From assembly GCF_028641065.1 (NCBI RefSeq), contig NC_073412.1, forward strand, positions 310,001-374,000: a stretch of 64,000 bases of DNA, in the 5' to 3' direction. Origin of the DNA: Leucoraja erinacea. Its lineage: Eukaryota. The number at the start of each line of letters is the position of its first letter. Within the stretch, counting starts at the first letter, position 1. Under the pieces are notes generated by a model that saw nothing but the letters and a program-made list of their open reading frames with translations, searched no databases and was not told where the DNA came from. This document shows positions 3,501-62,278 of this stretch, piece by piece. The position numbers were made by a program, and so were the translations under genes.

Positions 3501-6500
3501 CCTGAAGGTGCTGACTCTGGGACACTGACATTGAACAGAGTTGATGTGCTCACTGTTGCTTTGGGACAGCTTCAGGGAAGCTGACGCTTGCAAAGCTATG
3601 GGCCTTTATTCTATGGAATCATGAGTAAGAGACATGTTTAATTGGTGGGTGTTGATACTCATATGTCTTGAAAGATTTGCTCTTCTTCCAGATTGAGGAG
3701 GAGATCATGGGCTGCCTCGACTTCTTGCGCTCGGTATATGGAGTCTTTGGTTTCACTTTCCAGCTGAAACTCTCCACGCGGCCAGAGATGTTTTTAGGAG
3801 ACCCGAACACATGGAATCAAGCAGAAGAGGCAAGTAATAACTGGGCTAAGAGGCTACAGTGTTCAGGCTGATGTTCTTGGATGTTCCAGGAGACTTGCTG
3901 GAAAACAAGTGGTTCATAATCCATAATTTCAGGCATCCAATATTTGAAATTCTCCATTTAGGAGCTGTCAAATCTCATGATGTAAAGGAAAGTTCCAGAA
4001 AGAAAGAGCTTTCTTTAGTGGCTGACTACGCTGTGTCACCTGAGAGCGTTGATCACAGACAGGTTGCTGGAAAGGGTAGACATTGGTTTCCAGTGAATGG
4101 CATCTGGACCTGAATAAGCATGAGGGTTATTAATTCCAGTTTAAAGTTGTATAAACGAAGCAATCATCATCAGTTGGAGCTGAGCCTTGGTTTCTTTGCT
4201 GTTTTAGCATTTGAAGTGCAGTTTGGATGCGTTTGGTGAGGCCTGGAGACTGAGTGCAGGAGATGGAGCTTTCTACGGACCGAAGGTTAGTGATGGAAGC
4301 ACTTGGGGTTTGAGAGACTGCTGTCAATCTTAATCTCCCAGACACTTTTATCTTCTCTAATTGACTGCAGATTGATGTTGACGTGAAGGATGCCCTGGGC
4401 ATATACCATCAGTGCGCCACCATCCAGTTGGACTTCCAGCTTCCTATTCGGTTTAATTTGACCTACGTTAGGTGAGAGTGGTTTCAGGATGCTAGGCTTG
4501 TGTTACATAGTTAGCTTGGTTGTGCTATGACATCAGGGTACTGACGGCTCCCACTCACCACTAACACTAGAGATGGAATGGGAGGGTTGGTGTTGTGTGC
4601 GTATGTTGCTGATTCATCTTTCTGTTTGTAGCAAGGATGGAGCGGATGAGAACCGCCCAGTTATCATCCATCGTGCTGTGCTAGGATCGCTGGAACGCAT
4701 GGTGGCTATCCTTGCTGAGGACTATGCTGGGAAATGGTAATGCTTCAAAGCCAAATAGCACAGGGCAAGTGAGTTTCCCCACTGAGTCTCGGGTCACCCT
4801 GGCACTGCGTTATTGGCTCTGTGGGGAATCCTGTCCAAGGTTATGTGCTTTATCAGTCCTGGAGAAGTTTCACAGTTGGATTGGGCTCTGTTACCTGTAT
4901 CAGGATGGGCAAATCAGATGTGAGCACAGCAGGGTGTTGAATGAAAGAAGACAGTCGCTAAAAAGCGTTGATAAAGAACTTATCAATGGCAGAACAGATA
5001 TCACAGGCTTTGTTAACTTGCTACAGCTGGGCCGTCGAGATTAAACCAAAAATTTATCCTCACACCGTCTGTCTCACATGCTTTCCCCGGGCGATATGTC
5101 TGTGATTATCCCACTGCCCCTAGATTGACCTTTGTCTTAATTGTTTTTCCATGTTCCGCCCCCCCCCTCCTGACTAAATTAGGGCTGGTTTGTTGTTGCC
5201 TCTACATGAGTGACCGCTTTTTTAATGGTCCCCTACCCTGGGAAAAGACTCACCTTATCTATGCCCCTCATGATTTTATTAACCTCTGAAACATCACGCT
5301 CAGCCTATCCGACTATTCCAACTATTAAATCTTCCAGACCATAACATCCTCATATCTCTTTTATATATTTTCCACTTGAATGACATCTTTCCTGTGGCAG
5401 GGCATGTAAAACTGTACATAGTACTCCAAATGTTGCTTACCAACGTCTTATGTAGCTGTAACTTGACGTCCCAACTTCTGTACTTCATACTCTCACCATA
5501 GAAGACAAAGATGCCGAATGCCTTCTTCACCACCCTGACTACCTTTGTTGCTACTTTCACTTTACCATGTACCTACATCCCTAGGCCTCTGCGTAGGAAG
5601 GAACTGCAGATGCTGGTTACACTGAAGATAGTCACAAAATGCTGGAGTAACGCAGCGGGACAGGTAACATCACTGGATAGAAGGAATGAGTGACATTTTG
5701 GGTCGAGACCTACAGAATGAAGGGTCTCAGATCTCAGTATGGAGAAAGGTCTGAACCTGAAACGTCATCCATTCTATCCAGAGATGTTGCCTGTCCCGTT
5801 GAGTTACTCCAGCATTTTGTGTCTGTCCCCAGGCTTCTGTGTTCTACAACACTCCCAGGTCCCTACCATTTATTGTGTAGATCATGTGTGGTTTCAACAC
5901 CTTGCATTTATCTGAATTAAACTCGATCTTCTCACAGTTGATAAAGATCCCATCGTAATCTTAAATAACCACCTTCACTGTCCACTATACCACAAATTAT
6001 CATGTCAATCTTCGTGGTTACCTCTTTAAAAAAAAAAAAAAAAAATCCCAATCAAATCATGAGACATGATTTCCCATGCACAAAGATAGGGGGAGTTCAG
6101 GGCTAGCATGTTCAGGTAGAGTGAAAGGCAAGGATGGCTGGAATAGGGAACCCATGGAAGACAAGAGATATTGAGGTTATGGTCAAGAAAAAGTAAGGAG
6201 GCATACATCAGCTTTAGGTGTCTGAAGACTGGTGTGTGTGAGTGCAAGGAAAAGCCTGAGCACTACAGATCGGTGAGCCTAACATCAGTGGTGGGTAAGG
6301 TGTTGGAAGAGTTTCTGAACAGCAGGATAGTGGCACACCTCTACTTATCTCATATTTGAAAGCCTTTCACTTGCCTGTAAACAACCTCCCCCAATTACCT
6401 ACTGAAATTTCCTTTTCTAATACCATTAAAATCGTGTTTATCCACGTTTAGAACTGGTTGGACCAGTCCTATCTTTTTCTGTAACTGTTTTAAAATAGAA

Positions 6501-8370: not shown

Positions 8371-8430
8371 GCAGCGTGTGTGATGGGGAACGGGCATCTG
8401 TAGGTCTCAGTGGGCAGTGTGTGGAGGGGA

Positions 8431-8622
8431 TAGACACAAAATGCTGGAGTAATTCAGCAGGACAGGCAGCATCTCTGGAGAAAAGGAATAGGTGATGTTT
8501 CGGGTTGAGCCCCTTCTTCAGTCTCTGCCTGAAACATCACCCATTCATCTCCAGAGTTGCCGCCTGTCCCAATTTGGGTCTATCTTTGGCTTAAACCAGC
8601 ATCTGCAGTTCCTTCCTACACA
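8431..8622. mobile_element. Penelope-derived inverted-repeat element
   Basis: Arms match the family seen at 41538-41853 and 62070-62278 (agacacaaaatgctggag...cccttcttcag / gaaacatcacccattc...ccagcatctgcagttccttcctacac). Confidence 0.65.
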
Positions 8623-19600: not shown

Positions 19601-20662
19601 GAGAAAGCACGACAAGTAATAAGTGAATACACACGAGGGGGGTATTAGCAGATGGGTGGATTATTAGTTTTGAAATGCAAGTACTATACCACAATAATCA
19701 ACTATAGTTGAAAGTAGATGATTGGGACTTCAACGTTCTTCATCTATGTAATAAATCCCCATCATCCGACTTTGAGCAACCCAGCAAGGAGATTAAGTCA
19801 GTGAGGGATCCATTCTACTAACTTATTGGTGTTAGTCTAAAGCTTCAAATTAGCCACCGCCACCATGCAAGCTACAACACAAGACACTCAAAGTGTTGGT
19901 TTACAACAAAAAGATAACGTACTGGAGTAACTCCGCAAGACAGACAACATCTCTGTCATCATGGATGGGTAACATTTCGAGTCGGGACTGTTTGGGGGGG
20001 GGGGGGGGGGGGGCTGGAAGAGAGGAGGGCAGGGCAAAGCGTGGCAATAATATTAAAGAAGGGTCTCGACCCGAAACGTCTCCCATTCCTTCTCTCCAGA
20101 GATGCTGCCTGTCCCGCTGAGTTACTCCAGCTTTTTGTGTCTACCTTCGGTTTAAACCAGCATCTGCAGTTCATTCTTACGCAATAATATTAATGTTACC
20201 TTTTTGAAAGAAGTCAGCAGTTTAACACTGACATAGCCCATCTTATTTCTTCTCACGTGCTTTAGTAGAAATGCATCGTTTTCCAGGTAGTCATCAGACA
20301 GATAATATTCAATCTGGGCAACAAGTTTCTGTACCAGCTCACTGTCCGGTGGCGCCCACTCCGCCGCCAGATCATCTTCAGTACCGCTGTAACAGACAGG
20401 GAGCGGATTAACGAAGCTCCGACCCCCGCCTCCCTCCCTCCATCTCCCCGGCCGCCTCCTCCCTCCCCATCTCCCCGCGGCCTCGGTACCTGTTTATCCC
20501 GGGCCCGGGAGCCGCCTCTTCATCCGTGCCGCTGCCCACGCTGCCGCCCTCCGGCCGCGCCACCGGCTCCTCCTCGGCCGCCGCCACTTGGATGCGGACA
20601 AGCGGCGCGGCCTCCCCGGCCGTCACTGTCGCCCCGGTGTCGCCGAGCGTTCCCCCCTCCAT
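16625..20662 (-). CDS. LARP6: La-related protein 6 (482 aa from ATG 20662; 3 exons)
   Basis: Exon 1 20662-20490 (MEGG...LVRIQVAAAEEE), exon 2 20386-20200 (La motif QIEYYLSDDYLENDAFLLKHVRRNKMGYVSVKLLTSFKK), exon 3 17713-16625 (VKHLTRDW, RRM, SPWVQRRK, C-terminal VVRMPRGPDGTKGF). Total 1449 nt with consistent phases. Confidence 0.95.
17929..18340 (+). mobile_element. Penelope-like element 3' fragment: GIY-YIG C-terminus plus pseudo-LTR
   Basis: PVTQHFNSPSHS...LEEQHLIFCLGNLHPSSMNIDFSNFR*, then a C-rich tract and ctgaagggtcttgacctgaaacgtcacc (degenerate hammerhead core). Confidence 0.8.
19878..20180. mobile_element. Penelope-derived arms in LARP6 intron 2; the right-hand copy (20056-20180) has a 12-bp TSD
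   Basis: gcaataatatta at 20044-20055 and 20181-20192 flank aagaagggtctcgacccgaaacgtc...ccagcatctgcagttc. Confidence 0.7.
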
Positions 20663-26400: not shown

Positions 26401-29400
26401 TGGGAAAACGTTAATAATATGACTGAACTTCATAATAGTGCAAGGGAATGGGACTAATATTGCCTTTCACAGAATCACTGAGCTATCCTGGAAAATATAT
26501 ATTTGTGAGAAAAGTTTGGTATGTATCCCAAAAATGAACTCTGTAATAAAGTTTCATTCTGTTCTCATGGACAATTCTACACGTTTTCTATTGCTGTAAT
26601 TGATATTCTGTATATTTTAATAATATTTAATTGTTGATTATTTGAATGCAAATTATTGTACCTCCAGCACAAACATCATGCCAGGTAGACAAGTTATAGG
26701 GAGGCAGATTATACTTCTGTAGACTCTACATTGAATTTTGTTGTTCACAGAAATAACCTGTCATGATGATCCACTCCGCCACTACTCAGAACTGTCATTG
26801 AAGGAAACAGCTGGGGACATGCCATCACAAAGTCCCAGTTTACTAAAATCTCGACAGGGCTCTCAAAGTGCTGTGCCTTTCCATTCTCATGGTCACGGAA
26901 CCTTGCCGTACTTACCAGGTATTTCCTGTTTCCTGTTCGTAACCTATTCTGTTTCTGTTTTAAAAGGCCTAATGAAACAACAGTCCTATGTCAAGTGGGC
27001 TGAATTAGAATTGTACAAAACTATGAAAAATGCCTTTCTACTCTCAGTCCTGATATGGTTAAGTGGTTTATGAAACCACATGCCTATCAGCACCAACACT
27101 TTTTAATCTCTCCGCACATAAAAATCACATCACCTTTTTATTTTCTCCACTTTTCATATTTTTCTGCATTTTATTGCGTCCATGTCCTTGACCATTTACT
27201 CACCCTGTCCATATCATCCCAAAGCGTCTTGGCATCTCCTCACAGGGGAGACTGACTTTCAGCTTTGTGTCATCAGCAAATAGCGATAAACTGTAAATAT
27301 TCGATATTGATTGTGAGCAGCTGGGCATCGGCACTGATCTCTGGGACACTTCACAAGTTAGTTCTAACCTGAAAATTACCCTCTGTATTTAGTTTGTTCA
27401 TTTATCCTTAATCAATGCTCAGGTATTAATTACCCCAGCCCACCACCCACAGATCCTGATTTAATTTGAAAATCTTTTAACAAAGGTCTTCTGAAAGTTC
27501 AAATACACCACATCACATGATTCACCTTTATACAGTCTGCTTCTATGTTTTGTCTGATGGTCTTAGATTCTTTTGTTCATGCATGATGGAAATCCTGAAC
27601 ACTATCCAGAATATTGTTGAGGTTGGGGTGGTGGGGGTGATGGTTGATAAATGGAGAACTTTAAACCGGGGTTGTACATAAACTTCCTAGGCAGAGCTAC
27701 TCCAAGCTGTGAAACCAACATGGATTGATGAGGACAATGTATAAATCATGATTCCATAGAATGGTAAAAGCAGATTGCAGGGGCTTGTGATTTTTTAAAA
27801 CATTTTGTTATGAACTCAAAAGTCATCTTCCAAATAGGCTGAATTGCTGACTTGTAGAAGTAGCTCATTTCTGGCTTCCTTGTTATTTATTTAGTTGGAG
27901 CACCGTTTGTATGTTAGCCTGGCTACAAATGTTCCAGTCCAATGACCTTCTCTGTATGCTGAGAAATTCTGTATTATAACCAAACCCTTTGTAAATTCCC
28001 AGGTGACAATGTCATTTTCTCTGAGCTTCCTTCAACACCTGGAATACCAGTTGTATACCGCACACCCGAACAGCGGGCGGAATATGCAGACAGACTGAAT
28101 CTGGACAGGTGAGTATGATTTTAAAAGATTGAAAAACAGTATAGTTCAGAAATCAGCCCTTTGGCCCACAATATTTGTGCCGAACATGATGCCAAGTTAA
28201 ACTGATCTCATCTGCCTGAACATGATCCATTTCCCTCTATTCCCTGCACTTCCATCTTCCTATCTAAAAGCTTCTTAAAGGTCACTATCACCACCACCCT
28301 GGGCAGTGCATACCAGGCTCCCACCATTTTCTGTGTGATAGAACTTGACCGCACATCTCCATGAAACTTTCCCCCTCTCGCCTAATAGCTATGTCCACCA
28401 GTGTTGGACACTTCCACCCTGGGACAAAGGTTCCGACTGTCCAGGCCTCTCATCATTTTATATACTTCTATCAAGTCTCTCCTCAACCTCTGGCGAACCA
28501 GAGATACCTATCTAAATCTATCCCTGTAACTGAAACCCTCTAATCCAGGCAGTGTTTGGGTAAACCTCCTCTGCACCCTCTTCAAAGCCTCCTCATCTTT
28601 CCTGTATTGGGATGACCAGAATTGCAAGCAATAGTCCAAATGCTGCCTAATCCAAAGTCACAGAATTATACAGCAGGGAAACAGGCACCTTGGTCTAACT
28701 CATTCATGCCAACCCAATTGCTCTGTAAACTAATCCTATTTGCCTCTATTTCATCTTCTTCTTCTGTCGTGTGGCGTGCACAGCCTCAAGTTGTTGTATT
28801 TGATCTTCCGTTTGTACACGTCGAGTTGATTGCATTAGTCGAAACAGGGCAGACCACGTGAAGGTTGCCATCTTCCACCCCCCTATTTCATCCATTCTCC
28901 TCGAAACCTTCCCTACTCACATACCTGTTCAATGATAAGTGGTCCTAACAATGTAATTAAGTTCATGAATATAAAAGAAAGTTAAATCGATACGATTATA
29001 AATTGAGAGCATTTTACTGATATTTTTAGTTAAAACGTCAATTTATTATCTAGTAAACTGAAATAAGGCAGCCACAACTGTAATGAAACATTGCCTAATT
29101 GAAGAAAAATGAATTAGTAGACAATTAAAAAAATAGCATTTGTATTGAGAGGAGTGGAATAAACCTTCCCTGAGCTGCATCAGAATAATGACAGGTTTTC
29201 AGTGAGGTGTCTACATTACAACAGAACTACAGTGAATGAAGAAATTACAGCATTGTTCCCTTGGAACTACAGTGGGTAAAGTCAATAAATGTATTTTACA
29301 TAGGTTACAAACTAACTGTTTTCAACCCTCCCAATATGAACTGTTTTTGAATAAACCATCACAATATCTAAGCTCTGAACCCATAGCTCCCACATCATTG

Positions 29401-32400
29401 ACAACATGTAAATTCATCCTTTTACCCAAGTCTTAAATGAAAACAGTTTATAAAAATGTCCTGGAAAAATGCTCAGTGGTATTTTGTTGCAGATTACACT
29501 TGTGATCGGGCATGTTCTGTCGCGAATACTTGAACTATCTCTCGTACAGATTTAAATTTGAAGTTTTTAAATTTGTTTTTAATACCCATCTTTTGTTGAA
29601 ATGGAATTTATTCTACCATGCAAAACTTTACTTGCTGAATATCTAAGACTCATTACTTTCCATTAACAATTTAATATTTGTAATTATTAATCAGGCGAAA
29701 TCTAACCGTCTGTCCAATACTGGAGGGTGAGCAACAACTTCGCTTGTTGAATTTCCAGCACAACCTCATCACGCAGATACAGCACGTTTCCAACCTGCGC
29801 CGCCTTATCTTCTTGGACTTGTACAACAATCAGATTGAGGAAATCTCGGGTCTTTCTTCTCTGAGGTCACTCCGTGTGCTTATGCTGGGCAAGAACAGGT
29901 ACAAAATCCTTGTTCGTGTATTCAGGCAGTAGATTGCTCTCTCATTTGATGAAATGATTGACTCAGCAACTTTTCCCAAATTTGTTTGATCTCTCTGACT
30001 CCAGCCAATTGAAAATTTTCTTCCAATGCCTATTGAGTTCACTATTACTTCAGATTCTTAATGCCACATTTGGTGATATGATCTCTTGATGTAAGGATTC
30101 GCATGAAGGTAGTCAGATATCTTTGCAATATTTTGGGGAGTCCTGCCATGAAGCCTGATACAAAATATTCCTGTTTCTATCAGGCAAGAGGTACAGGCGC
30201 CTAAAGTCTCACACCAGCAGCTTTATCTAAAGAAAAAAGAAAATAGCAGGTTACAGCAATGAGATAAAGGAGGGGGTGGGTAGAACTGCTAATTCCCTGC
30301 AACTATTGAATTCTTCAACTGATCTGCACGACTCTAATCCTATCTCAGCTACAGGACATTTCTGACCACCTCTAGAATTGCAATAGACTTGATTTCTAAT
30401 CATGTTTTGCACGAATGTCTTGATTTTTTTAACATAATCTTTTCTCTTTTCACCTTGTTGAGTTTGTGTGAATTATATATAATTTATGATTTACGCCTCT
30501 GTACCTGTGATGCTGCTGCAAGTAAGGTTGTGCATTGTACCTGAACCTCACCGTACTTGTGCAAATGACAATAAATTCAACTTGATTGGGTTTAACTTAT
30601 CTTCCATTTATTTATTTCCTGTTATTAATCTCAAATTTTGACATCTGGATATCCAACACTTACACTTGTTATCCTCTGGCCTGGAATGTTTTGCCTCCAC
30701 TGGAGGTTACTTTGTCTCTACTGTTAACTCTGGTAAATCCTCATGAGGCTCCAACTTAATCAGCCAGTGATCCATCAGTCTGTTGGCATTCTGTCTCTGG
30801 GCACAAGATGCTGACTTGGACTTGAGAATGGCCAAAGAGTGGACTGGAGCAAGACAAGTCAAATACAATGGGCTTCCTGAAGAAGGAGGTGTTCTTTACT
30901 GGAGCAGGTGGTAAATGCATGTTTTATTATTCGCAGGATCAAGAATATCTCCAATCTGGAGAATCTGACTGATCTCGATGTACTGGATCTTCATGCAAAC
31001 CAGGTGTGGTAATGTCACAACTAACAGGCACAGAATCTGACAGCATTCAAATATTCAACCAGATTTGATCAGTTTTACACCAAAAACAAATCATTTATCA
31101 GATTGATTGTGTGATAATACTAGTTTTTAGTGTTTGGAATAATTGTTAAAGGTTTCTGTGTTGTGCCAGCAACTGACAGTTGTGTTCTGACACTTGGTGT
31201 AATGTCACTGATCAACTATTTTCTGGAAACTATTCAGATAACCCTGTCAAATAAATGGATTGTAATTTTTCCTGCTCAAGGTACCTGGTAAAGTGAGTAC
31301 ATTTTTACCCAAATCGAGTATCTAAAAAATGTCAGTATGTTCCTACTGTAATGTTAGTTTGCTCCAGGATATTAGTACTCCTGAACCACTAGCTTTCATG
31401 TCCTTCTCCATGGTAAATACAGGTGAGAAGTATTCATTCAGGACCTTGCCCATTTCCTGTGGTTTCAGACACACATGAATATCTCATTCCCCTTTATCGC
31501 CTTCCTAATTTCCTTCAGCTTAGGCAGTTGTGTATGCAAATGGAGGAGTCTCAGACCTGGTGGAAACCTACGCATGGGGAATGCTAACATCAATAGGACA
31601 GCGGAGGTAGAATGGAGTTGTAACAGAATTTTGAAAAGATAAATAAGAGAAATCTACATTTGTTAATCAGTTTATGCATGTGGGAAATATTTGTAAAATC
31701 ACTATGGAACAAATGAAAGGTGAGAATTCTATTACACACAATAATTGGGACTTGAACATCTAATCATGAACAATGGGAGGGAGAGAAGTCAAATTCACAA
31801 CAGGTAATACAAATAATGGATTTTTGGCAGAGGCCAGGGAACATAGAATTAACGTGATAGCAACAACTAGAAGTAGCAGAAGGAATTATTTAAGAAGGAA
31901 CTGCAGATGCTGGAAAATCGAAGGTAGACAAAAGTGCTGGAAAAACTCAGCGGGTGCAGCAGCATCTATAGAATGAAGGAAATAGGCAACGTTTCGGGCC
32001 GAAACCCTTCTTCAGACTGAAGAAGGAAGTTGATTGGGTGTATAAAATACTGCTGTGACTGTACAGAAGGGGTGAGGTTGTGGCATTCAGAAGTGAGCTG
32101 TATGAGATGTTATGAGGAAAGGATCTGCAGGGAGTTGTGAGGAGAGGGCAAGATAGTGGGACCAGTTGGATTTTTAAATCAAGCCGTTACTGTCTCAGTG
32201 GCCTGAATGTTAATGTTAATGCTTAATGTTGTAACTATTCTGTGTTATTGTTATAACCTTAAGGGGTAAAATGCCTTTGTATTCTGCTTCTATTGCCGTC
32301 TGTTTCATCTCAATGTGGATTTCTTGGCACGATGTTGTGAAGTAGAAACGCAAGCTGTGAAAAAGAGTGAAACAAAGTTCATTGGGCTGCTGTCCAGATG

Positions 32401-35400
32401 CTTGCACCTTCTGAGCAATGTCTCCCTGTACTTTTCCAATTGACTGGTTCTCAGTGTTGTAGCTACCACCTGAACAGGTCGAGGATAATGACTCTGTCAC
32501 TGACTGAAGCTATCGTTACCCATTCAAGTCTGACCTATTGATCAGAAAACCTAGCCTGCAGGATGTGGCTTTCATTCATCCATTGCACATCACACTGAAT
32601 TACTTGTGCTGGACAGGGCATCTGCTGATTTATATTTACAAATCAGCCTCTACCCACCCCTCCCTTATCTCATTACTGTAACCTGCTATTTTGTTTTTTC
32701 TTTGGATACATCTGCAGTTCTCACAAGTTTCTTCCTCTCCCAAAAGTTCCCTTTCCAAAACTGATATATAAATTAATAGGTCAAACCTGGAATTTGAGCA
32801 CACCAAGCTACAATTTATCAGTAGCCTCCTGACTTGCCAATTTATAATGAATTGAGATGTAGCAAGCCAGATTACAAGCTTATTGTATTATAAAATGTGA
32901 ATGTATGTAAACAAAGTAGGCGAAGAGTTATCATTGCCTCGGCCCTCATTAGCACATCCAGTTTTGCATTCAATGAAAACTTTGAACACTTGCTAATAAT
33001 TAGTGGAAGGGAAGTTGTATGCTCTGTTGCTGAGAGTCAGAGGCCACCAGCCAGTTAGAACAATCCCAGCGTAATAATCAGAGAGAGAGCGATGGGTCTG
33101 ATTAAAGACTGGGCAGTCTGTGCGCACTGTTTCAGTACGGTCAACTCATTTGCATAACTTTTCCATAAGACTCTGAGTTCTACTTTGTGTTTGGAGAAGA
33201 GTAATCATTATTTAAAACCACAATGTTTTCCTTATGTCTTTACTTGTCAATGTTCTCATTTTTATTTGCCACCTGAGGAAATGTGAGTATTCAAACTATA
33301 TTTATTGATAGATTTCGAGGATAGAGAACATTAACCATCTGACTGAACTCCGAGTGCTAAATCTTGCAGGGAACCTCATTGTTCATGCTGAAAATATGAA
33401 TGGTCTTGACTCACTAACAGAACTCAATCTCCGACGTAATCACATAGAATCTGTGGTAAGTGTTATCCATGGCCCATTCACTGAGCTGATTCATGATACT
33501 TGTCATTGTGTTCAACAACCTGGCTGTAAAAGACTGTGTTTTGTAATTTTCTTTAATTGATGATTTTTTTCCATGAAGATAAAGTTTCTGTTCGAGCATA
33601 TTTGTTTTATCCATTAGTAAACCAAGCCTCCTCCTGCTGCTTCCTCTGCTACTAAGTGTTCATGTTGTTGGAAGATTATCATTATCACGTCAGAGATACC
33701 AATTATGTTGCTATCCACCTTTGCTGTGATTAGTTTCATGGATGGGTTCCTGCCATCGGCTTATTCGACACACCCCACCTATTATCTTTCACAATCTTTG
33801 TACACCCTATTAAACCAGTTGATGTCGTCAACCAGTCACATGCATGACCAACCGACCACATCCGTTTTGCCACTGAAACAAGAGCAGCTGTACCAGTGTG
33901 CACTCCTCAGTAAGTATCAGGAGCCGAGGTCTCTGGCGTGGGACTGGAATCAGATGCAATGTGCTGAGTCAGTCACGCTCATTAAACACAGTGGAGAAAA
34001 CATTCATTCACATTGTAGGAACAATGGTAGTTTGATGCTGGTGTTGATTATATTGAACAATATTCAAGAGCTCTCTCTTCATCCCATTGATGAGCACCAC
34101 GGTTTGCTCTGTGGCACAGCTGGTGGTCGTAGCTCCAGTCCTGCTTCTCTCTCGGGCTTTGGGGGTTTTCTCTGGGTGCACCAGGTTTCACCCACACTTC
34201 ATTGGCATAATTACTCCGATAAACTTGCAGTTTTCTTGTGTGAGCATGTCCAGAATTACAGGTAATGGTCGACAAGTTCCTATCACCGATGCTCTACTTC
34301 CCTGCTGAGTGTTCCTTCAGTCTTTACAAGGGCAACCATTCCTGAAGTTCACATTTTATAAATTATTCTATCTGTAAAAAGCACAGAAAATGTTAAGTCT
34401 CATGAATGAACCAGCACGCTTTTAGGGTATGGGGAAAAAAATTTACATTCGCCTGGAGACATGGGACTGCAGGTGCTAGTTTACAAACTCAGTGGGTCAG
34501 GCGGTATCTATGGAGAACATGGATAGGTGACATTTCACAGAGTGCTGGTTTACAAACTCAGTGGGTCAGGCAGCATCTGTGGAGAACATGGATATGTGAT
34601 GCTTCACAGAGTGCTGGAGTAACAGTGGATCTGGCAGCATCTGTGGAGAACATGAGTAGATCTCCTTATCTGTCTGTACACCTGCAAATTATGCTCTCAT
34701 TTGGCCACCAAACCTCTTTTGATTATGTTGCCACTTAATTGCATGGAGAGGTGATTTACAGCAGTTGATAAACCCCAATGCATTTAGGATATGGGAGGAT
34801 GAAGCATGGGGTGAATGTACAAACTCCTCACAGAGTAATGTGTAATGAATGCAAGGTACATATTTAAAGCAAACTGAAACCCCTCATTTATTAATTGGCT
34901 GAAGCTTTAATCATGACTTCTGAATAAAGATTTGCTCATGCTGCATAATTCAGACCGCTGATCTTGAAAAGGAATGTTAGCAGTTCACAAAATAAATGTT
35001 AGACTAGGAAGGATGAACAGTATACAATACAATACGGTATGCAGCAGATACAGACTGTGATAACAAATTATCCAGGCATTAGTAAGGAATCTCTAATATT
35101 ATGCCCTTTTCCCAGACTTCAGGCACCCTGTCCCAGCTTTGCCGACATGGTGGTACGTGAACATACAAGAAACTGTAGGCGCTGAAATCTTGAGCAAAAA
35201 ACAAAGTGCTGTAGGAACTCAGTGGGTCAGGCAGTATTTGGGGTCATGACTCTTGAGCGTGAAGAAGAGTCCTGACCTGAAATGTTGTCTGTCCATTCCC
35301 TCCACAGATGCTGCCTAAACTGCTGAGTTCCTCCAACACTTTGTTTTTTTGTGGTGGACATGAGATGGGAGAAATAGTTTACACAAACTTGAAATAGCAG

Positions 35401-38400
35401 TGATACTGGCCTGGGAAATGATTCAAACAGGATTTTATCCAGATTAGCCTTGGAAGATTAACCAAAATTCTTTCTTTAAAGGAAACCAATGTCTTTGCAG
35501 CGCCAGCATAAATACAGCTTCAGTACACCCTGCTCCTTACTCAACACTTGACAAAGTATGATAACACAGACACCACCTTCTTTCATCAAAAATTCACTAG
35601 ATAATACAGATAGTATTAAATGAAAATATTAAACAACTGCAGATATTGCAAATCTGAAACAAAACAGAACACACTACAAAACTTGGCAAGTCAGGCAGCG
35701 TTTGTGGAAAGAGAAATAGTCAATGTTTCAGGTCTACAACCCTTCATCAGAACATAGAACCGTACCATACAAGAACATGCCCTTTGGCCCACAATGTCAG
35801 GTCAAACATGATGCCAACAACAACACTTATCTACCTGTACATGATCCATATCCCTCCATTACCTGCATGCCCATAAGCCTCTCTAAGGTTCTGAAATGCC
35901 ACTATGATCTCTGCCTACATCACCATCCTTGACAGTGTGTTCCCGGCTCCCACCACTCTGTACAAACAAAACTTGCCCCACACATCAGCTTTAAAGTTTG
36001 TCCCTCTTACCTTAAAGCCATGGTCCTTGACATTTCCATCTCCCCGCAAGCTCTGACATTCTAGATGAAACAATCCAACTTTGTCTGATCTCTCCTTCTA
36101 GTTAATATCCCCTAATGCAGGCAGCATTTTGCCAAACCTCTTATGCACCCCCCTCAAAGCTTCCACATCCCTTCTGTAATGGAGCGACCAGAACTGCACA
36201 CATTACTCCAAAAGCAGTTCAACCAAAGTCCCATAAGGCTGCAATAGAAAGGTACTGCAGATGCTGGTTTATACCAAAGATAGACACAAAATGCTGGAGT
36301 AACTCAGCGGGTCAGGCAGTTTCTCTGAAGAAAATAGGTAGGCGTCGTTACAGGTCGTGATGCTGCAACATGACTTCATGACTTTTGTACTCAATGCCCT
36401 GATGATGAAGGCAACTATACCATTTGCCTTCTTTACCACTAATGGTGTTGCCACTTTCAGGGAGCTATGGTCTTGAACCCTTTGATCCCTCTATACGGCA
36501 ATGCTGTTAAAGGTGGAGGAACACAGCGGGTTGAGCAGCATCTGTGAGGGGAAGGGAGAAAATTTTGGTGTTTCCAGTATGAAGAAGAGAGGGCGAGGGG
36601 TGTGAAGGGCCAGTAGGTGATCGGTGGACCAAGGTGTAGTGAAGGATCGCGGACAGATGGAGCGGGGGGGGGGGGGGGGGGGGGGGGCCGGGGGGGGGGG
36701 GGAGGAAGGTGGAGACAGCTAATGTTGCAGCTTTTCAGCGTGTTGGGGCTGTTCTGCCTCGTGCTGTCTCGTATCACAAGGTTTACCCAAAGCATCAGGG
36801 TTACACTCTCATGTCCAGACAGAAATCTCCATTGTGGTCTCTTCTTCACAGAGTTTATTCGGTATGTAGTTCTTACTTTCTCTGTTTACTGTTAGATTGT
36901 CGGTATATTTTAGCCCATTTGGTGGCGGGTCCATAATATTTGCATTTCACTTAAATTAAAAATCGGTACTGAACAGCTCCACTAATGTGGCCGATGAATA
37001 AAAGGCAAAAAATTAACTTGTTTTAGTAGTCCTTTGGGGAACAGCCACACTGTAAGGACATGCTGAGCAGAGTGAGAGTGGCAGGTTGAAGAGCCAGTCA
37101 GTGATGCTGTGCAGTGACTGCGCAGGCTTCTACAACCGTCACTAAGACAGCAGCTTGGCCCTGCCCGTGGCTGCAGCAACAGCATCCGAATGACAAATTC
37201 ATCTGTCTGCTCTCCTGCAATGCTTGCTCTTAACCAGGGGCTCAGTCGCTGTGAGCAAAACCTTTTGACCAGGCTGCAGTAAATGGAAGTGCAAGAATGC
37301 TTCCGAAGGCTGCTGCGATGTTATGCACTGTCTTGCTGACAACTCCCTCTTTATCTTTCCTTCACAGAGAGATGCAGACTCTTTACCTTGTCTCCAAAGA
37401 TTTTTCCTCAGCTTTAACAACATATCCAGGTAAGAGCTGCATCCTTTTATTATTAACAAGAAATGCCAGGCAGTTCCACAATGCCTCGATGCTCACTGAG
37501 TTAAAGGCCAAAGCCTTTGCTTACTGTTACTGCAGAGGCATTTAATCTATTCACATTTGTGTTTGCTGCATTTTCGGTAATTAGTTTTTATGTTAAACAG
37601 ACAAATTGAATAAAGCCAGTGATTTTATTTTCTGGCTTGGTTTTATTTCAGCACATTGCTGACTCGTGTACTCGACTGCATTTGTCAGCCTGAGCCTGAT
37701 TGCTGCAGCCATTTAACAGTGTCTCAGTGAAGGGCACCCGTACACCAGGAAGTACCGCCAGCAAGCTCTGCACCTTCTGTCACAAGTTTAATTATATAAT
37801 ACCTCATTTTCAACATTATTTAGTCTTGATAATAAATAGTGATACAGATTTTACACAGTTTAAAATAAAATTATAAATGTTTATTAAATGGAATGTGTGT
37901 AAATCAGATGGAGTTTATTATTCTGCAGAATATATTCCAATACACTGTTGTAAGGTGTATAGATATGTATTCATGATAAATCAACATGCATGCATTGATA
38001 TTAATAGAGTGACGTGGCATCTGAAAATGTTGGCTGTTTATTGTTAAGGTTCCTTGCACCCAAAATAACCAGAAAAAACCATGAAGACTTTGGTTCCCAG
38101 TCACTGCCATCTCATGTTTTATAATTTTACTTCACAGACAGCCTGTGATCAATACAATTACTAAATCCATTACCTGTTTGTGAAGAAACCTGAGGGAAGG
38201 CTCTGGACAAAGTTTACAAAGTCAGCCAAACTGAGACGAGAAATTGATTCACATCAAGAAATTGTAATTTACTAACACATGTTAATATTGAAAAAAACAG
38301 ATTAAGGGTCAAAGCTGAGGAAAAATGTACAAAAATTATATATTTACGACTGCGTTAGAAAGCATAGCTGCCCTGCCTTCATCAATGTCATCTCTTAAAA

Positions 38401-41400
38401 ATTTGTAGACATGATTTCCCACACTAAAAGCCTCACTGACCATTCCTAATCAGGCCATTTCTTTCCAATTGTATGTCAATCCTGTCCCTTAAATCTGTGG
38501 TTCCAAATGACTCTTCTGCCAAAGGAACAGGTTCTTCGTCTTGCGTATGGCGTGCACAGCCTAAAGTTGTCGGACAAATTGTTCTATTTGATCTTATTTG
38601 ATTGTGCACGCCGGGTTGATTGCATTTGTCGAAACAGGGCGGACCAGGTGAAGGTTGCAATCTCCCACCCAGGGAACAGGTTCATTTGTGTTCACTTTGA
38701 CTAGGCCTCCGCTCCAATCGAACCTCCTCTCAGTTCCACCCCTGCCTTTAGCAGTTTCTCTTCAAAATTATAATGTTTCAACATTGGCAGAATCCTTGTA
38801 CACCTCAGCTGCACCCTTCATGCGATGTTTTGTCTGCAGCCGTTGACAGTTGGCTCAATATGACTTAAATAATGTGTAGGAAGGAACCGAAGATAGACAC
38901 AAAATGCTGGAGTAACTCAGTGGGACAGGCAGCATCTTTAGATAGAAGGAATGGGTGACATTTCGGGTCGAGACCCTTCTTCAGGCCTGTCCCGCTGAGT
39001 AACTCCAACATTTTATGACTTAAATAATGTTTGTGTGATTCAACGATCACCTCCCTGCGCTTGTGTTCTATATCAGGCGGTCCCATACTTAGCTTCTTGT
39101 CCAACTTTGCATTGCCCTACATGGAACTGCATGAGAGAGCAATTTCACCAGATGGAATCCCATCTTTCCAGCTCAGTTAAAATTGGGCAATGAATGCAGT
39201 GACACTCGTATCTTGAGAATTAATATGCAAACATTTGATCTTTGCATATTTTCATAAACCCGTGGGCAGCAACACTACCTGCTGCTCCACTTACTGCACC
39301 GTTGTTTTATTCAATTTAAATGGATACTCTATTGGATCCCACTGCAAGAAACTGATACTACTTCGGAAGTGAAAGATACTAGTTGTGAGATGTGATTAAA
39401 TTAAATATTCATTTTATCTTGATTAGCAAGCTGCCACAATAGACCAGAAATCAGGCTGAATTAATGCAACAGAGATAGTGACCATAAACCTTTGGGATGG
39501 GATGGGAGTGCAGTCTGTGAGATAGTTAGCAAAGCAGAGAATCCATCTTTGCTCATTTATGTTCAAGATTCTCAGAGATGGTTGTATCCATTAGTTATTT
39601 CTCATTTCTTAATTGTATTTAATACAGTTTCATTAGCCTCTTTAATTAAATGTTTTCATAAAACGCAGATTTGAGAACATTGCTTGCCTGGCAGACTCTG
39701 TATCACTCTCGGAGGTCACCCTGGATGGCAATCCCATAGCTCAGGAGTCATGGTACAAGCAAACACTTCTCCGACACATGGTGCAGCTCCGACAGTTGGA
39801 CATGAAGAAAATAACAGTGAGTCTCCAAGGCTGGCCGCACTGGTGGGATGTGTGCCGTAACATCCAGCTCTGCCACTGTCCATCAGTCCAGTGGGCTGAG
39901 CAACAAGACACTCATGGAATGCTCTCTTATACTGACCCACTGCTTCATCTCGTTGAGGAATAGTTTTGAGACTTTGGGATTAACTAGTTGAATTGGGGAT
40001 TAGAAAGATGATTGAAATGGAATTTGAAAACCATTTGTGACATTGATAGAAATACAGTATAGCAGCCAGTGATACATGACAGACTCCAGGACTGTGGTGC
40101 ATTTGGAGTTTAATTTGATTAGGCAGATTTAGATTTCCAGATGACTGGGACTATTTCTAGGGATGTTGGACCTGCGTAAGCTGAACCAGAAAGACCCAAC
40201 ATCCTCAAAGGGAGGTTTGCTGGGACTGTTGGGAACAAGTCTGCATCTAATTTGGCAGGGAATGGGACATAGACCAGATTCCCCATAGACAGTCTGGGGA
40301 AGGTGCAGTCAAATATAGGACAGCAAATCAGCCCAGTAAAAGCACAGGCATGGGTGTGATCAGCCACTTGGGGGGAATGTGAGACTAAATGGAAGTTATT
40401 TTAATGAAAGAAGGTGAACGTAGTGTGTTTGTCAACTCATGGGAAGGAATGCATTTCGTTGTCTCTGTACTGTACACTGACAATGACAATAAATTGAATC
40501 ATTTCATTTTTTCATTTCATTTCATTTCATTTCATTTCATTTTTTTTTGATACTGTTGCTGTCACACTGACATGGTTAAATGGAGAGCAGGAAGGGCACG
40601 GTACAGAATCATCGGGCCTGTTGGAGGGTTGGGGAATAATGGTGGGATGTAAAAAATGGGATTTTAAGGAATCTATTACTTTGTTCAATAGAGAGGCAAT
40701 TCACACGTTTGATTTCTTCGCAGGAAGAGGAGAGGAGAATGGCATCGGTCATGGCCAGGAAAGAGGACGACAAGAAACGTGAAATCCACAAGCAGGCAAT
40801 CTTGAAGGTGCGGGCTCACTGCTGGAGTATTAGTTTCATATTCATTGCAAAAATAATCCAATAGTCAATAATTGAAAATCAAATGTGAAATAATAACAGA
40901 ACATTCGGTGGCATGAATAGAAAGAGAAACAGTGTAGATTGCAGGAGGCCATTTACTTTCAGTCCTAGCCATTACACAGCCATAAACTAACCAAATAGAA
41001 TCATATTGAATTATTGTGCATTATATTTAAGATGTTTTTGGGTTCACAGCCACAACCTAAAGAGTAAAAAGTTAGTAAAAAATATCTTTTAAAACAACAG
41101 AAATGGATAATTTATCAAAGCCAATCTCAAATTTAATTTAATGTAGTTTTACTGAAAAAAGAATGTTCAGTAAATAACTAATGGGAGTAGTATTGATGAT
41201 GAGTGAATATCATTCCAGCAGAAACAGCTGCGTTCAAGGTTCAATGTCTGTGCCAAATCTCCTCTGCCACCACATGATCCGTATCCCTCAATTCTCAGCA
41301 TGTTTGTATGCCTATTTAAAAGCTTTTTATATGTCACTATTGCATCCGCCTCCACCACTATCCCTGGCAGTGCGTTCAACATACAACAACCACCCACATT

Positions 41401-44400
41401 GTAAAGTAAAATTGCTCCTCGCATTTCTTTTAAACTTTGTCCCTTTCACCTTAAAGCTATGTCCACTAGTTGACATGTCCACACTGGGAAAAAGGTTCTG
41501 ACTGTCTACCCTGTCTATGCCTCTTCTAATTTTCTATAGATAGACACAGAAAGCTGGAGTAACTCAGCGGGACAGGCAGCATCTCCAGAGAGAAGGAATG
41601 GGTGATGTTTCAGGACGAGATCCTTCTTCAGACCTGAAGGGCTGAAGAAGGGTCACGACCCGAAACATAGAAACATAGAAATTAGGTGCAGGAGTAGGCC
41701 ATTCGGCCCTTCGAGCCTGCACCGCCATTCAATATGATCATGGAAACGTCACCCATTCCTTCTTTACAGACATGCTGCCTGTCTTGCTGAGTTACTCCAG
41801 CTTTCTGTGTCTATCTCGGGTTCATACCAACATCTGCAGTTTCTTCCTACACATCTAAATTTCTATTCTTCTACAGCTCTCCCCTCAACCTCCAGCATTT
41901 CAGAAAATCAATCTGTCTGTCCAACCTCTCCTTGGAGCTAATACCCCCTAATCCAAGCAGTCTTCTCGTAAATCTCTACACCCTCTCCCAAGCCTCCACA
42001 TTCTTCCTTTATTGCGGTGACCAGAACGGCACGCAATACTCCAAATGCAGCCTAGTCCAAGTCTTATAGCACCGCGTCTTATACTTAATCCCCTGACCAA
42101 TGAAGGCAAGCATACCCTGCACATTCTGACCCGTGAGGACCTCTGCCATTTCTCTTATTCCTATTTTTAATTTCCCAGTCTTATCCTCGCAGGGACTAAT
42201 ATTTGCTTCAGCTTGAACTTTGCTTATATATTGCTTATACTTGCATCAATTCTCTTTTTACATTACGTAGGTTTTCTCTCATACTTTATCTTCTCCTTCT
42301 TTATAACTCTCTTGGTTATCCTTTGCTGATTCCTAAAAAATTCCCATTCTCTGGCCTAAAGTTAATATTTGCAATGTTGTATGCCTTTTCTTTCAATTTG
42401 TACCATTGTTGAATTCCTTAATTAGCGATTGATAGTGAATCCTTCTGAGAGTGTTTATGTTTCTCTGGTGAAGTTATACAATATCTTCATAAATTTCTTC
42501 CATTGCTATTCTTTGGTTTTGCTCATTAATCTATTTTTCCTGTCCACTTTAGCCATCTCCGCCTCATACCATTGCATTGCTTTATGCTTATGACACCTAT
42601 TTTCAGGCCCTTTTTCATTCTCATCTCAATGTGAAATTTCACCATACCAAGATCACTCTATCCATGGAGATCTTTATTATTAAAAGAATTAATTAATTCT
42701 GCCTCATTAGACATTACCAGACTTATCCACAGCCACACGTTTATCTGTTCCACCTTCCTATTTATGTACTCATTAGCACAAGCACTAGAGCTGTCCTGGT
42801 CTGGGGTCACCGCCTTTCGTCTCCATACAACCTGTGTGAAGGACCACTGTAACTTTGCCGATTCTCATCTCACCAACCAGTCCCCACCCCACCCACCGCT
42901 CCACGTAGATAGATGGGTGTTCATCTCATGCATTGCTTGCAGATTTTGTCATTCATTGATTATCTCGCCTAAACTGGAAGCCCTAACTGTCTGCTCCCGG
43001 TCACAGGAGAAGCGACGCTTGGCTATTAGTAACGCTGCCAGACAGTGGGAGATGCAGCAAACGTTCACAACAGACAAGGAGGCACAGCAAGCATACTCTC
43101 TCTGCACAGTCAGTAACAACAGTATTCACAAGCCCTGCCACCTCACCCAGTCTGAGCAGGAACTGTGGCCCCGAGAATCAAGGTACTTTCTTGTACTGCG
43201 TCACCTGGAGGGGGAGGATCTTAATGATGGAAATCATCAAATGGAATCAGTTTGGATGGAGCTAAGAAATAGTGAGTTGGGAGTTGCCCTCAGACTGAAT
43301 AGTGCAGGAGGTCAAGTCAAGTCAAGTTTATTTGTCACATACACATACGAGATGTGCAGTGAAATGAAATTGGCAATGCTCGCGGACTTGTGCAAAAGAC
43401 AAACAACCAAACAAACAAACTATAAACACAATCATAACACACATATTCTTTTACATAATAAATAATGTAAGGAAAAATATTCAGTAGAGTTAGTCCCTGG
43501 TGAGATGGGCGTTTACAGTCCGAATGGCCTCTGGGAAGTAACTCCTTCTCAACCTCTCCGTTCTCACCGCATGGCAACGGAGGCGTTTGCCTGACCGTAG
43601 CAGCTGGAACAGTCTGTTGCATGGGTGGAAGGGGTCTCTCATGATATTGTTGGCTCTGGAGTTGCACCTCCTGATGTATAGTTCCTGCAGGGGGGCAAGT
43701 GAAGTTTCCATAGTGCGTTCGGCCGAACGCACTACTCTCTGCTGAGCCTTCTTGTCCTTGGCAGAGCAATTCCCAAACCAGATGGTAATGTTCCCGGACA
43801 AGATGCTTTCCACCGCCGCTGCGTAGAAGCACTGGAGGATCCTCGGAGACACTCTGAATTTCCTCAATTGCCTGAGGTGGTAAAGGCGCTGCCTTGCCTT
43901 ACTCACGAGTGCTGAGGCGTGTGATGCCCATGTCATATCCTCGGAGATGTGGACTCCCAGATATTTAAAACAGTTCACCCTATCCACAGGATCCCCATTT
44001 ATCCTCAATGGAGTGTACGTCCTCGGATGATGTGCCCTCCTAAAGTCCATGATCAGCTCCTTCTGAACAGCATAAACCAGCAAATCTGAGATCCAGTACA
44101 GGCAAAGAATAGTTAAAGTTAATGTGGACCCGTTAGAATCTGATTCAGATGCAATTATACTGTGAATTTGGGAAATTCAGAGAAATTAAAGAAATGTTTT
44201 GTGTCTTTTCTCACTGAAGGAGACCTAAAAACATTCACAGAAAGACTAGGGAACTCGAGGTCCAGCGAGGTTGCTCAAAGAAATTAGTATCAGTAAAAAA
44301 ACTGTTGGGGGTTTAATGAGAATGAAAGGAAATAAATCAGTAGGAGCTGAAGACCTATGTTGTGGAGATTGTGGATGCAGTGCTTCCAGCATTCCATGTA

Positions 44401-61725: not shown

Positions 61726-62069
61726 ACATTGAGGAAGAGGTTATTGTCCTAGCACCATGTTACTACTTCCAGTGGCGTTGTCTGCAAACTTGTAGATGGA
61801 GGTTGAACATGGAGTTTAGCCATACAGTTGTGAATGTATAAGGAGTATAGTAGGGGACTGAGAATCCTTGCAGGGCACCAGTGTTGAGTTATTGGGGGGG
61901 GGGGGGGGGGGGGGGGAGTTATTGTTGCTTATCCTCACTGATTGAGGGCTGTGAGTCAGAAAGTCAAGGATCCAGCGGTGAGGGAGGGAGGGGGGAGTAG
62001 GTGCACATTGTAATTGTAGCATGTGTCTCTCCTCAAATCCTGTTGCATTAAAGGCCAACATACTTTTTG

Positions 62070-62278
62070 CATCAAAGATAGAGACAAAATGCTGGAGTAA
62101 CTCAGTGGGACAGGCAGCATCCCTGGAGAGAAGGAATCGGTGACGTTTCGGGTCGAGACCCAGTCTGAAGAGTCACCCATTCCTTCTCTCCAGAGATGCT
62201 GCCTGTCCAGCTGAGTTACTCCAGCATTTTGTCCCTATCTTCGGTTTAAACCAGCAACTGCAGTTCCTTCCCACACAT
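62070..62278. mobile_element. Penelope-derived inverted-repeat element
   Basis: gacaaaatgctggagtaactcag...gtgac / gtcac...ctgagttactccagcattttgtc arms of about 65 bp. Confidence 0.75.

Follow-up and report, generated by a model that had tools for sequence, protein, structure and literature searches.

Where does a 136-base element come from that begins with a predicted HDV-like ribozyme and ends in a simple-repeat tail, and what is the role of the perfect stem near its 3' end? Two copies of this element are present in a 64,000-nt stretch of the Leucoraja erinacea genome, hereafter the window. An earlier note on the window had described the element as a ribozyme followed by a local 3' stem-loop, recognized by the reverse transcriptase (RT), and a tail, inserted by target-primed reverse transcription. 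The copy considered here consists of the following parts, listed together with its flanks and the other copy.

38535–38670, minus strand: element headed by a predicted HDV-like ribozyme, 136 bases
38673–38683, minus strand: 5' copy of the target-site duplication, 11 bp; counting 38671–38672 extends it to 13 bp, one of them mismatched
38524–38534, minus strand: 3' copy of the target-site duplication, 11 bp
38618–38671, minus strand: predicted minimal HDV-like ribozyme; the same head is found on the parent LINE
38665–38671 and 38636–38642 (P1'), minus strand: ribozyme P1
38656–38662 and 38618–38624, minus strand: ribozyme P2, perfect
38653–38655 and 38643–38645, minus strand: ribozyme P3, with L3 at 38646–38652
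38629–38633, minus strand: remnant of ribozyme P4, 5 nt
38628, minus strand: equivalent of the catalytic C
38671 and 38647, minus strand: T at the G1 position and C at the G25 equivalent in this copy
38613–38617, minus strand: A/C spacer of 5 nt from P2' to the 5' arm (4–6 nt in other families)
38603–38612, minus strand: 5' arm of the end helix, from the parent 5' UTR
38559–38602, minus strand: 44-nt loop with the deletion junction
38549–38558, minus strand: 3' arm of the end helix, from the parent 3' UTR
38535–38548, minus strand: terminal A-N-N-C-G motif, common to the Vingi families in this genome, and (AAG)n tail
28759–28881, minus strand: copy 1, of subfamily B; 12 nt are missing from its loop, and P2, P1' and the 5' arm carry private changes

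The landmarks named in the earlier note, namely, an 11-bp duplication different from that of copy 1, a fully paired P2, the P1' strand, and a perfect 10-bp stem around a 44-nt loop, were all found, and the length difference between the two copies indeed lies in the loop, where copy 1 has its deletion. The two copies are 77% identical. Compared with the majority of its 29 closest relatives, the 38535–38670 copy shows four differences, at G1, at G25, and at a single position each in the loop and the tail, and the 13-bp parse of its duplication spans the G1 position. The loop holds about 8 nt of 5' UTR, about 20 nt of filler, and the final codons of the parent ORF with the TAG stop (38561–38563). 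The 10-bp stem forms locally in the folded short element; the folding energy of the element is unremarkable (z = −0.83, with 41 of 200 shuffles as good) in a program without pseudoknots.

An abundant family with precise 5' ends

The element belongs to a large family. A 24-nt motif of the 3' end had 3,243 exact matches in the genome, parent 3' ends counted in, and a 35-nt ribozyme core had 2,496; both reversed controls gave 0. At first look, the candidates for the two window copies had numbered 1,749 and 2,325 in the 2.19-Gb genome (40 scored each). The genome holds, in a vertebrate, a natural set of about 2,500 predicted minimal ribozymes whose predicted catalytic core is intact. Most copies are complete: 85 of the 90 loci examined reach the 5' end, among them 25 of the 30 chosen through the 3' motif alone. 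Target duplications of 7–16 bp were present in 79 of the 85 full-length copies, compared with 6 of 425 in a swapped-flank control. All 79 end at most 1 nt from G1, the predicted cleavage site, in a search that allowed offsets up to 4. The earlier note had placed the 5' boundary shared by the two copies at G2, but 78 of the 85 full-length copies have a G at G1, where the family starts; copy 1 has this G as well, and its junction parses two ways.

The similarity between tail and target that had been noticed at this one insertion extends to the whole family. In 62 of the 79 cases, the (AAG)n phase ran at least 1 nt into the duplication, and in 36 at least 2 nt, compared with chance expectations, by our own estimate, of about 1 in 4 and 1 in 16. 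Target duplications of variable length and a simple-repeat tail show that the family amplified on its own, and because of them a MITE was rejected. A tRNA-derived or other classical SINE was also considered and rejected: Rfam gave no match to a tRNA, 7SL, 5S, or snRNA head at either copy, and the head is the 5' end of the parent LINE itself, not derived from an RNA gene. Median divergence was 5.9% across 25 unbiased full copies. Of the 23 sequencing runs listed, 19, under seven organism codes and with RNA labels that we guessed, contained at least half of the sequence words. Contigs from these runs indicated dispersed insertion, with mostly CpG-type changes, and neither the parent junction nor proof of transcription was found among them.

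The HDV-like head

In the family majority, every pair of the nested double pseudoknot (P1, P1.1, P2, and P3) is possible. The core is kept as well, with U20 in 87, C22 in 83, G25 in 75, and the catalytic C in 85 of 90 copies, and the majority shows the G1-U wobble, U20, G25, the catalytic C, and A78. The 38535–38670 copy lacks G1 and G25. Because U20 and G25 are described as near-invariant in HDV-like ribozymes (PMC3386971, in part), this copy is probably impaired, as had been suspected. Two positions that had been pointed out as variable indeed vary, in the form of subfamily variants: position 8 in J1/2 is G in 50 and A in 37 of the 90 copies, and position 45, after the catalytic C, is A in 37, T in 36, and G in 14.

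The argument that the second copy restores pairs imperfect in copy 1, and that the two together support the fold, did not hold. Copy 1 is a member of a different subfamily, and the pairs broken in it go back to mutations of this copy alone (the P2 break and the P1' change are private even within its subfamily, and the latter, C to T, still leaves a G-U pair), so that the two window copies are no test of covariation. The alignment of many copies that the note had proposed gave almost no covariation either: among 90 copies, the few cells with changes on both sides come with truncated alignment rows. One P1 pair is A-U in the parent and G-U in the short element. Support for the HDV fold comes instead from other LINE families. 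Across nine families with different letters, one copy each and family G, whose fold was parsed separately, left out, paired cells numbered 58 of 63 in P1, 53 of 54 in P2, and 25 of 27 in P3, and P1.1 was paired in 9 of 9 (C-G in 8, U-A in 1), a count that is partly circular since the stems were assigned by the analyst. The U-A pair belongs to the 5' end of family D (L182, L165). By eye, the 3' UTR of the same family repeats the 5' strand of P2 and could compete for P2'.

An Rfam scan of the window (E ≤ 1) gave no HDV-type match, and an intact family copy scored 15.5 bits with CPEB3 (threshold 35) and 14.4 bits with HDV-F-prausnitzii (threshold 44), both sub-threshold. The low CPEB3 score is explained by P4, which in this family is reduced to 5 nt instead of a stem. 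P4-less natural HDV-like ribozymes have been reported as active-type motifs (Riccitelli 2014, as cited in the accessible part of PMC6326823), so that the missing P4 marks a minimal variant. Like CPEB3 (RF00622) and the minimal P4-less forms, the family has a 7-nt L3, a one-pair P1.1, and a C-N-A-A junction; it differs from CPEB3 in its score and in the lack of P4, whereas the sister families A, I, and C score above the threshold. Self-cleavage 5' of G1 is likely, and the 5' boundary at G1 speaks for it indirectly.

Alternatively, the head could act mainly as an internal promoter, with a fold that no longer cleaves without P4 and a fixed 5' end that is simply the transcription start. The first 77 nt of L1Tc are reported to be both promoter and ribozyme (PMC3383444, in part), and the minimal P4 and weak Rfam scores fit a decayed activity. 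However, a boundary exactly at G1, the retention of all core positions in the majority, and the P4-less motifs just cited argue against this explanation, which we consider very improbable.

Among 13 loci scanned, four passed the 35-bit CPEB3 threshold, two of family A and one each of I and C: L129:1471-1555, L127:1467-1551, L126:1473-1545, and L170:4446-4533, with 62, 57, 52, and 44 bits. These matches, at the 5' ends of sister Vingi families, point to a Vingi origin of the mammalian CPEB3 ribozyme.

The parent LINE

The source of the element is a decayed, Vingi-type LINE of about 3.1 kb in the same genome. A loose ribozyme pattern first led to a LINE of family A. This family has an HDV-like head and an APE-RT-zinc-finger frame and differs from the direct parent; with the APE of family A, related elements were then listed, of which 60 loci were fetched, and the parent, family P, accounted for 10 of these. 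The first ~80 nt of the short element match the parent at 86–93%, and the last ~42 nt, a stretch that includes the stop codon of the ORF, at 86–100%. Made of the first ~80 and the last ~42 bases of the parent, the element is therefore a non-autonomous LINE of the bipartite type, and its HDV-like head lacks P4. By eye, 21 of 30 parent 5' loci carry the ribozyme; the same terminal sequence was found in 27 of 30 3' loci, and both ends occur together in L192, L194, L176, L183, L184, and L195. Parent candidates numbered 636 for the 3' stretch versus 39 for the 5' stretch.

The parent lacks an ORF1. Colinear pieces, from copies that are all broken, read as a compact single ORF with Pfam matches to APE (E 4.7e-9), starting about 150 nt after G1, and to RT (RVT_1, E 3.1e-21). 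Pfam gave no RNase H match in the two post-RT pieces scanned, and the length of the parent would leave no room for this domain. The parent copies seen are about 85% identical to L194 and all decayed; none of 150 scored C-terminal matches was intact, and the longest open frame had 435 aa. Presumably, the short element was mobilized in trans by the protein of a LINE.

The parent is called Vingi-type on the following grounds. In a quick RT tree, which did not include named Vingi proteins, it joins families A to H (SH-aLRT 88). By eye, similarity to Vingi-2_Gav and Vingi-1_BF, whose 5' ends are printed in the supplement of PMC5786205 (in part), is seen in families A and I. Vingi elements are described as single-ORF and without RNase H, which separates them from Ingi (PMC13708176, in part).

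Two other searches did not lead to the parent. Sampling through the 3' motif yielded no LINE among 30 loci, and a search with Pfam PF14529 gave, in 30 fetched loci, an unrelated two-ORF LINE. The latter is young: its open frames span about 1,200 aa, and its copies (L095, L097, L098, L109, and L114) are nearly identical. It has no relation to the element. Copies of Vingi elements with an inverted 5' part are common (L122, L126, L131, L176, L183, L184, and several of L245–L269), and the inversion often reaches the ribozyme end.

A probable helix between the two ends of the LINE

In the parent, the two arms of the 10-bp stem lie about 3 kb apart. The 5' arm belongs to the 5' UTR and follows P2' after 5 nt; the 3' arm, part of the 3' UTR, follows the stop codon after 2 nt and adjoins the terminal motif directly. 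In the architecture proposed by the earlier note, the ribozyme-like head, the simple-repeat tail, and target-primed reverse transcription are supported, whereas the local 3' stem-loop as the site of RT recognition has to be given up. A stem-loop taken over from the 3' end of a LINE, as in L2- or CR1-dependent SINEs, would fit the local folding of the stem in the short element, but the 3' end of the parent contains only one arm, the other being located behind the ribozyme, so that this origin is hardly credible. Instead, the stem appears to be a remnant of a helix between the 5' and 3' ends that recurs across the Vingi families.

This recurrence was analyzed in silico in nine families, in which each 25-nt window that follows P2' was paired with every 25-nt window that precedes a terminal motif; the windows were set after the pattern had been noticed by eye in most of them. 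Pairing within the own family was the best of 362,880 permutations, with a mean of −13.2 kcal/mol compared to −7.5 ± 3.8. Windows of 18 nt and 35 nt ranked 1 and 3 of 362,880, and four shifted-window controls were not significant (ranks 40,226 to 309,011). Own-family pairing also ranked 1 of 5,040 after removal of families P and D, which are palindromic, and 1 of 720 for the six families other than P, A, and E. The number of shuffles, out of 500, that paired as well was 7 for P, 0 for A, 7 for B, 34 for C, 29 for D, 3 for E, 66 for F, 0 for H, and 26 for I; by this measure, the signal is weak in family F and borderline in C, D, and I. Families H and I are represented by one or two copies, and the ends of H were taken from two loci that are 91–92% identical.

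The register is shared as well. In most families, 4–6 nt separate P2' from the start of the helix, and the helix extends right up to the terminal motif. Flush runs, with one mismatch allowed and a spacer of 4–5 nt, comprise 9 pairs in P, 9 in A, 8 in C, 6 in F, 11 in H, and 10 in I; in B, D, and E, the flush end is interrupted (2–5 pairs) and pairing continues further in. An A-C mismatch is present in the stem of the parent and of subfamily B, and there were no two-sided changes in the stem among 90 copies.

Family G allowed a prediction. Its 3' end had been unassigned, and the arm, predicted beforehand with a hint from the sister locus L189, was found at 9 of 10 pairs. The predicted pattern had 476 matches, with 0 in the control; among 100 listed matches, only 3 have the letter of the strict complement and the remainder have 9 of 10 pairs. 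The matched loci belong to family G by DNA identity (for example, 87–91% over about 900 bp in L276). Several of the matches are short two-ended derivatives of this family, in which the 3' piece reaches barely beyond arm, motif, and tail. These ribozyme-headed derivatives fall into at least two size classes, of about 190 nt (L272, L280–L282, L284, and L299) and about 300 nt (L291, L294, L297, and L298).

The complementarity could be a by-product, in which 5' inversions or template switches placed an inverted piece of the 3' end behind the ribozyme, without any function now. Inverted 5' parts are common in these LINEs, two families have palindromic arms, and the filler in the loop looks, by eye, like inverted 3'-end pieces. 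A by-product would hardly explain, however, why the register is shared by families whose RT pieces are only about 36–54% identical to that of the parent, why the letters differ between families, with G-U or bulged pairs, and why the signal persists without the palindromic families. We consider this origin improbable.

A more serious alternative is that the two-ended derivatives are what they seem and the helix is real but serves another purpose, such as stabilizing the RNA, a part in translating the single ORF, or controlling how the ribozyme folds. The complementarity is strong and position-specific and is silent on function, and the competition for P2' that appears feasible in family D would fit control of the ribozyme. 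On the other hand, the helix reaches exactly to the terminal motif, at which copying begins, and non-coding derivatives of two families, that of the 38535–38670 element and G, keep both arms although translation is irrelevant there. On balance, a different purpose seems unlikely to us.

Because the families keep the match between their ends while the letters change, Vingi RNAs likely close end to end. The full proposal, that Vingi LINE RNAs close by a family-specific helix, which extends from about 5 nt after the ribozyme to the terminal motif, and that the RT recognizes this helix, is in our judgment evenly poised between right and wrong.

A model for the origin and spread of the element

For the element itself, we favor the interpretation, which we regard as fairly probable, that the fused ends of a Vingi-type LINE have been inserted at thousands of sites, with an RNA that likely self-cleaves at G1 and is likely recognized by the RT via the helix between 5' UTR and 3' UTR. 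The HDV-like head would trim a transcript that was read through or started internally and would thus create a fixed 5' end. In the parent, the end helix would close the RNA of about 3 kb and bring the ribozyme next to the terminal motif and the (AAG)n tail as one binding site, and priming would occur on the tail with 1–3 nt of pairing to the nicked target. An internal deletion that spared both arms would make a local hairpin out of the long-range helix, leaving a short template that could be mobilized in trans. Such deletions would account for the two-ended derivatives in the Vingi clade.

Comparison with known elements

The class of the element is already known; what is added here is the proposed end helix. 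Vingi-1_EE derivatives, RIME (Ingi), NARTc (L1Tc), and RTESINE1/2 likewise consist of only the two ends of an autonomous LINE, have no head from an RNA gene, and carry a LINE-type tail and target duplications (PMC5786205, in part). The closest tested case is the R2 SIDEs, which, according to the accessible part of PMC3414825, also combine a 5' HDV-like ribozyme with a 3' end and are moved in trans; cleavage has been shown for them, and they differ in being rDNA-specific and low-copy. In the R2/R1 hybrids of the same source, R1 needs only its 3' end, whereas the Vingi ends are matched to each other. The Pr77 sequence of L1Tc/ingi is likewise an HDV-like ribozyme, which occupies the first ~77 nt of an Ingi-group LINE and also of the short derivatives of this LINE; it differs in that these are trypanosome elements and promoter activity has been shown there (PMC3185411, PMC3383444, and PMC4035085, each in part). 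By eye, SINE2-1_AMi (PMC5786205 supplement, in part) has a similar order: a ribozyme remnant is followed by a spacer of 5 nt and a short stem, and then by the terminal motif seen here and an A-rich tail. It differs in its tRNA head, which precedes a Vingi 5' part, and in a 5-bp stem with a 3-nt loop, and the listing gives the origin of its 3' part as unknown.

A literature search, for which patents, Repbase, Kojima 2011, and Ruminski 2011 were outside the scope, found no description of this family or of pairing between Vingi ends. The accessible part of PMC13708176 mentions neither, and that of PMC5753468 contains nothing on ribozymes. Two-ended non-autonomous derivatives have been described from RTE, Ingi, Vingi, and R2, a bias whose cause is left open in PMC5786205 (in part). 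End pairing is a testable answer to the question of why only these four yield such elements; if true, recognition of the ends would explain the two-ended mini-elements from Vingi, perhaps also from Ingi. Vingi-1_Acar is in use as a platform for gene insertion, with templates flanked by both UTRs (PMC13708176, in part). Because these templates carry both UTRs, an end helix would bear on their design and, if true, would amount to a design rule for Vingi-based gene-insertion templates.

Context of the element and other features of the window

Leucine-rich-repeat exons are located on the plus strand at 29684–29929, 33312–33557, and 39646–39960, and further ones probably near 43.0 and 45.5 kb; we take the gene to be LRRC49-like. 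Both copies of the ribozyme element are opposite in strand to this gene. Because the 38535–38670 copy is intronic and antisense, its ribozyme strand is absent from the pre-mRNA of the gene. This copy is a passenger whose ribozyme is probably weak or dead.

The minus strand of the window also contains genes for a U3 snoRNA (56881–57098, 170 bits) and for a tRNA whose anticodon is GUG (58384–58455, 61 bits). An abundant repeat of about 100 nt, which looks like a MITE family, is present in both orientations at 38891–38998, 5626–5733, 8428–8535, 20056–20152, 36278–36385, 41538–41645, and 62066–62250, once as an inverted pair of 84 nt with a distance of 17 nt. Tandem arrays lie at 20.9–21.7 kb and 23.5–23.9 kb, and the region from 49000 to 55000 consists of about 6 kb of near-pure C/T low-complexity sequence.
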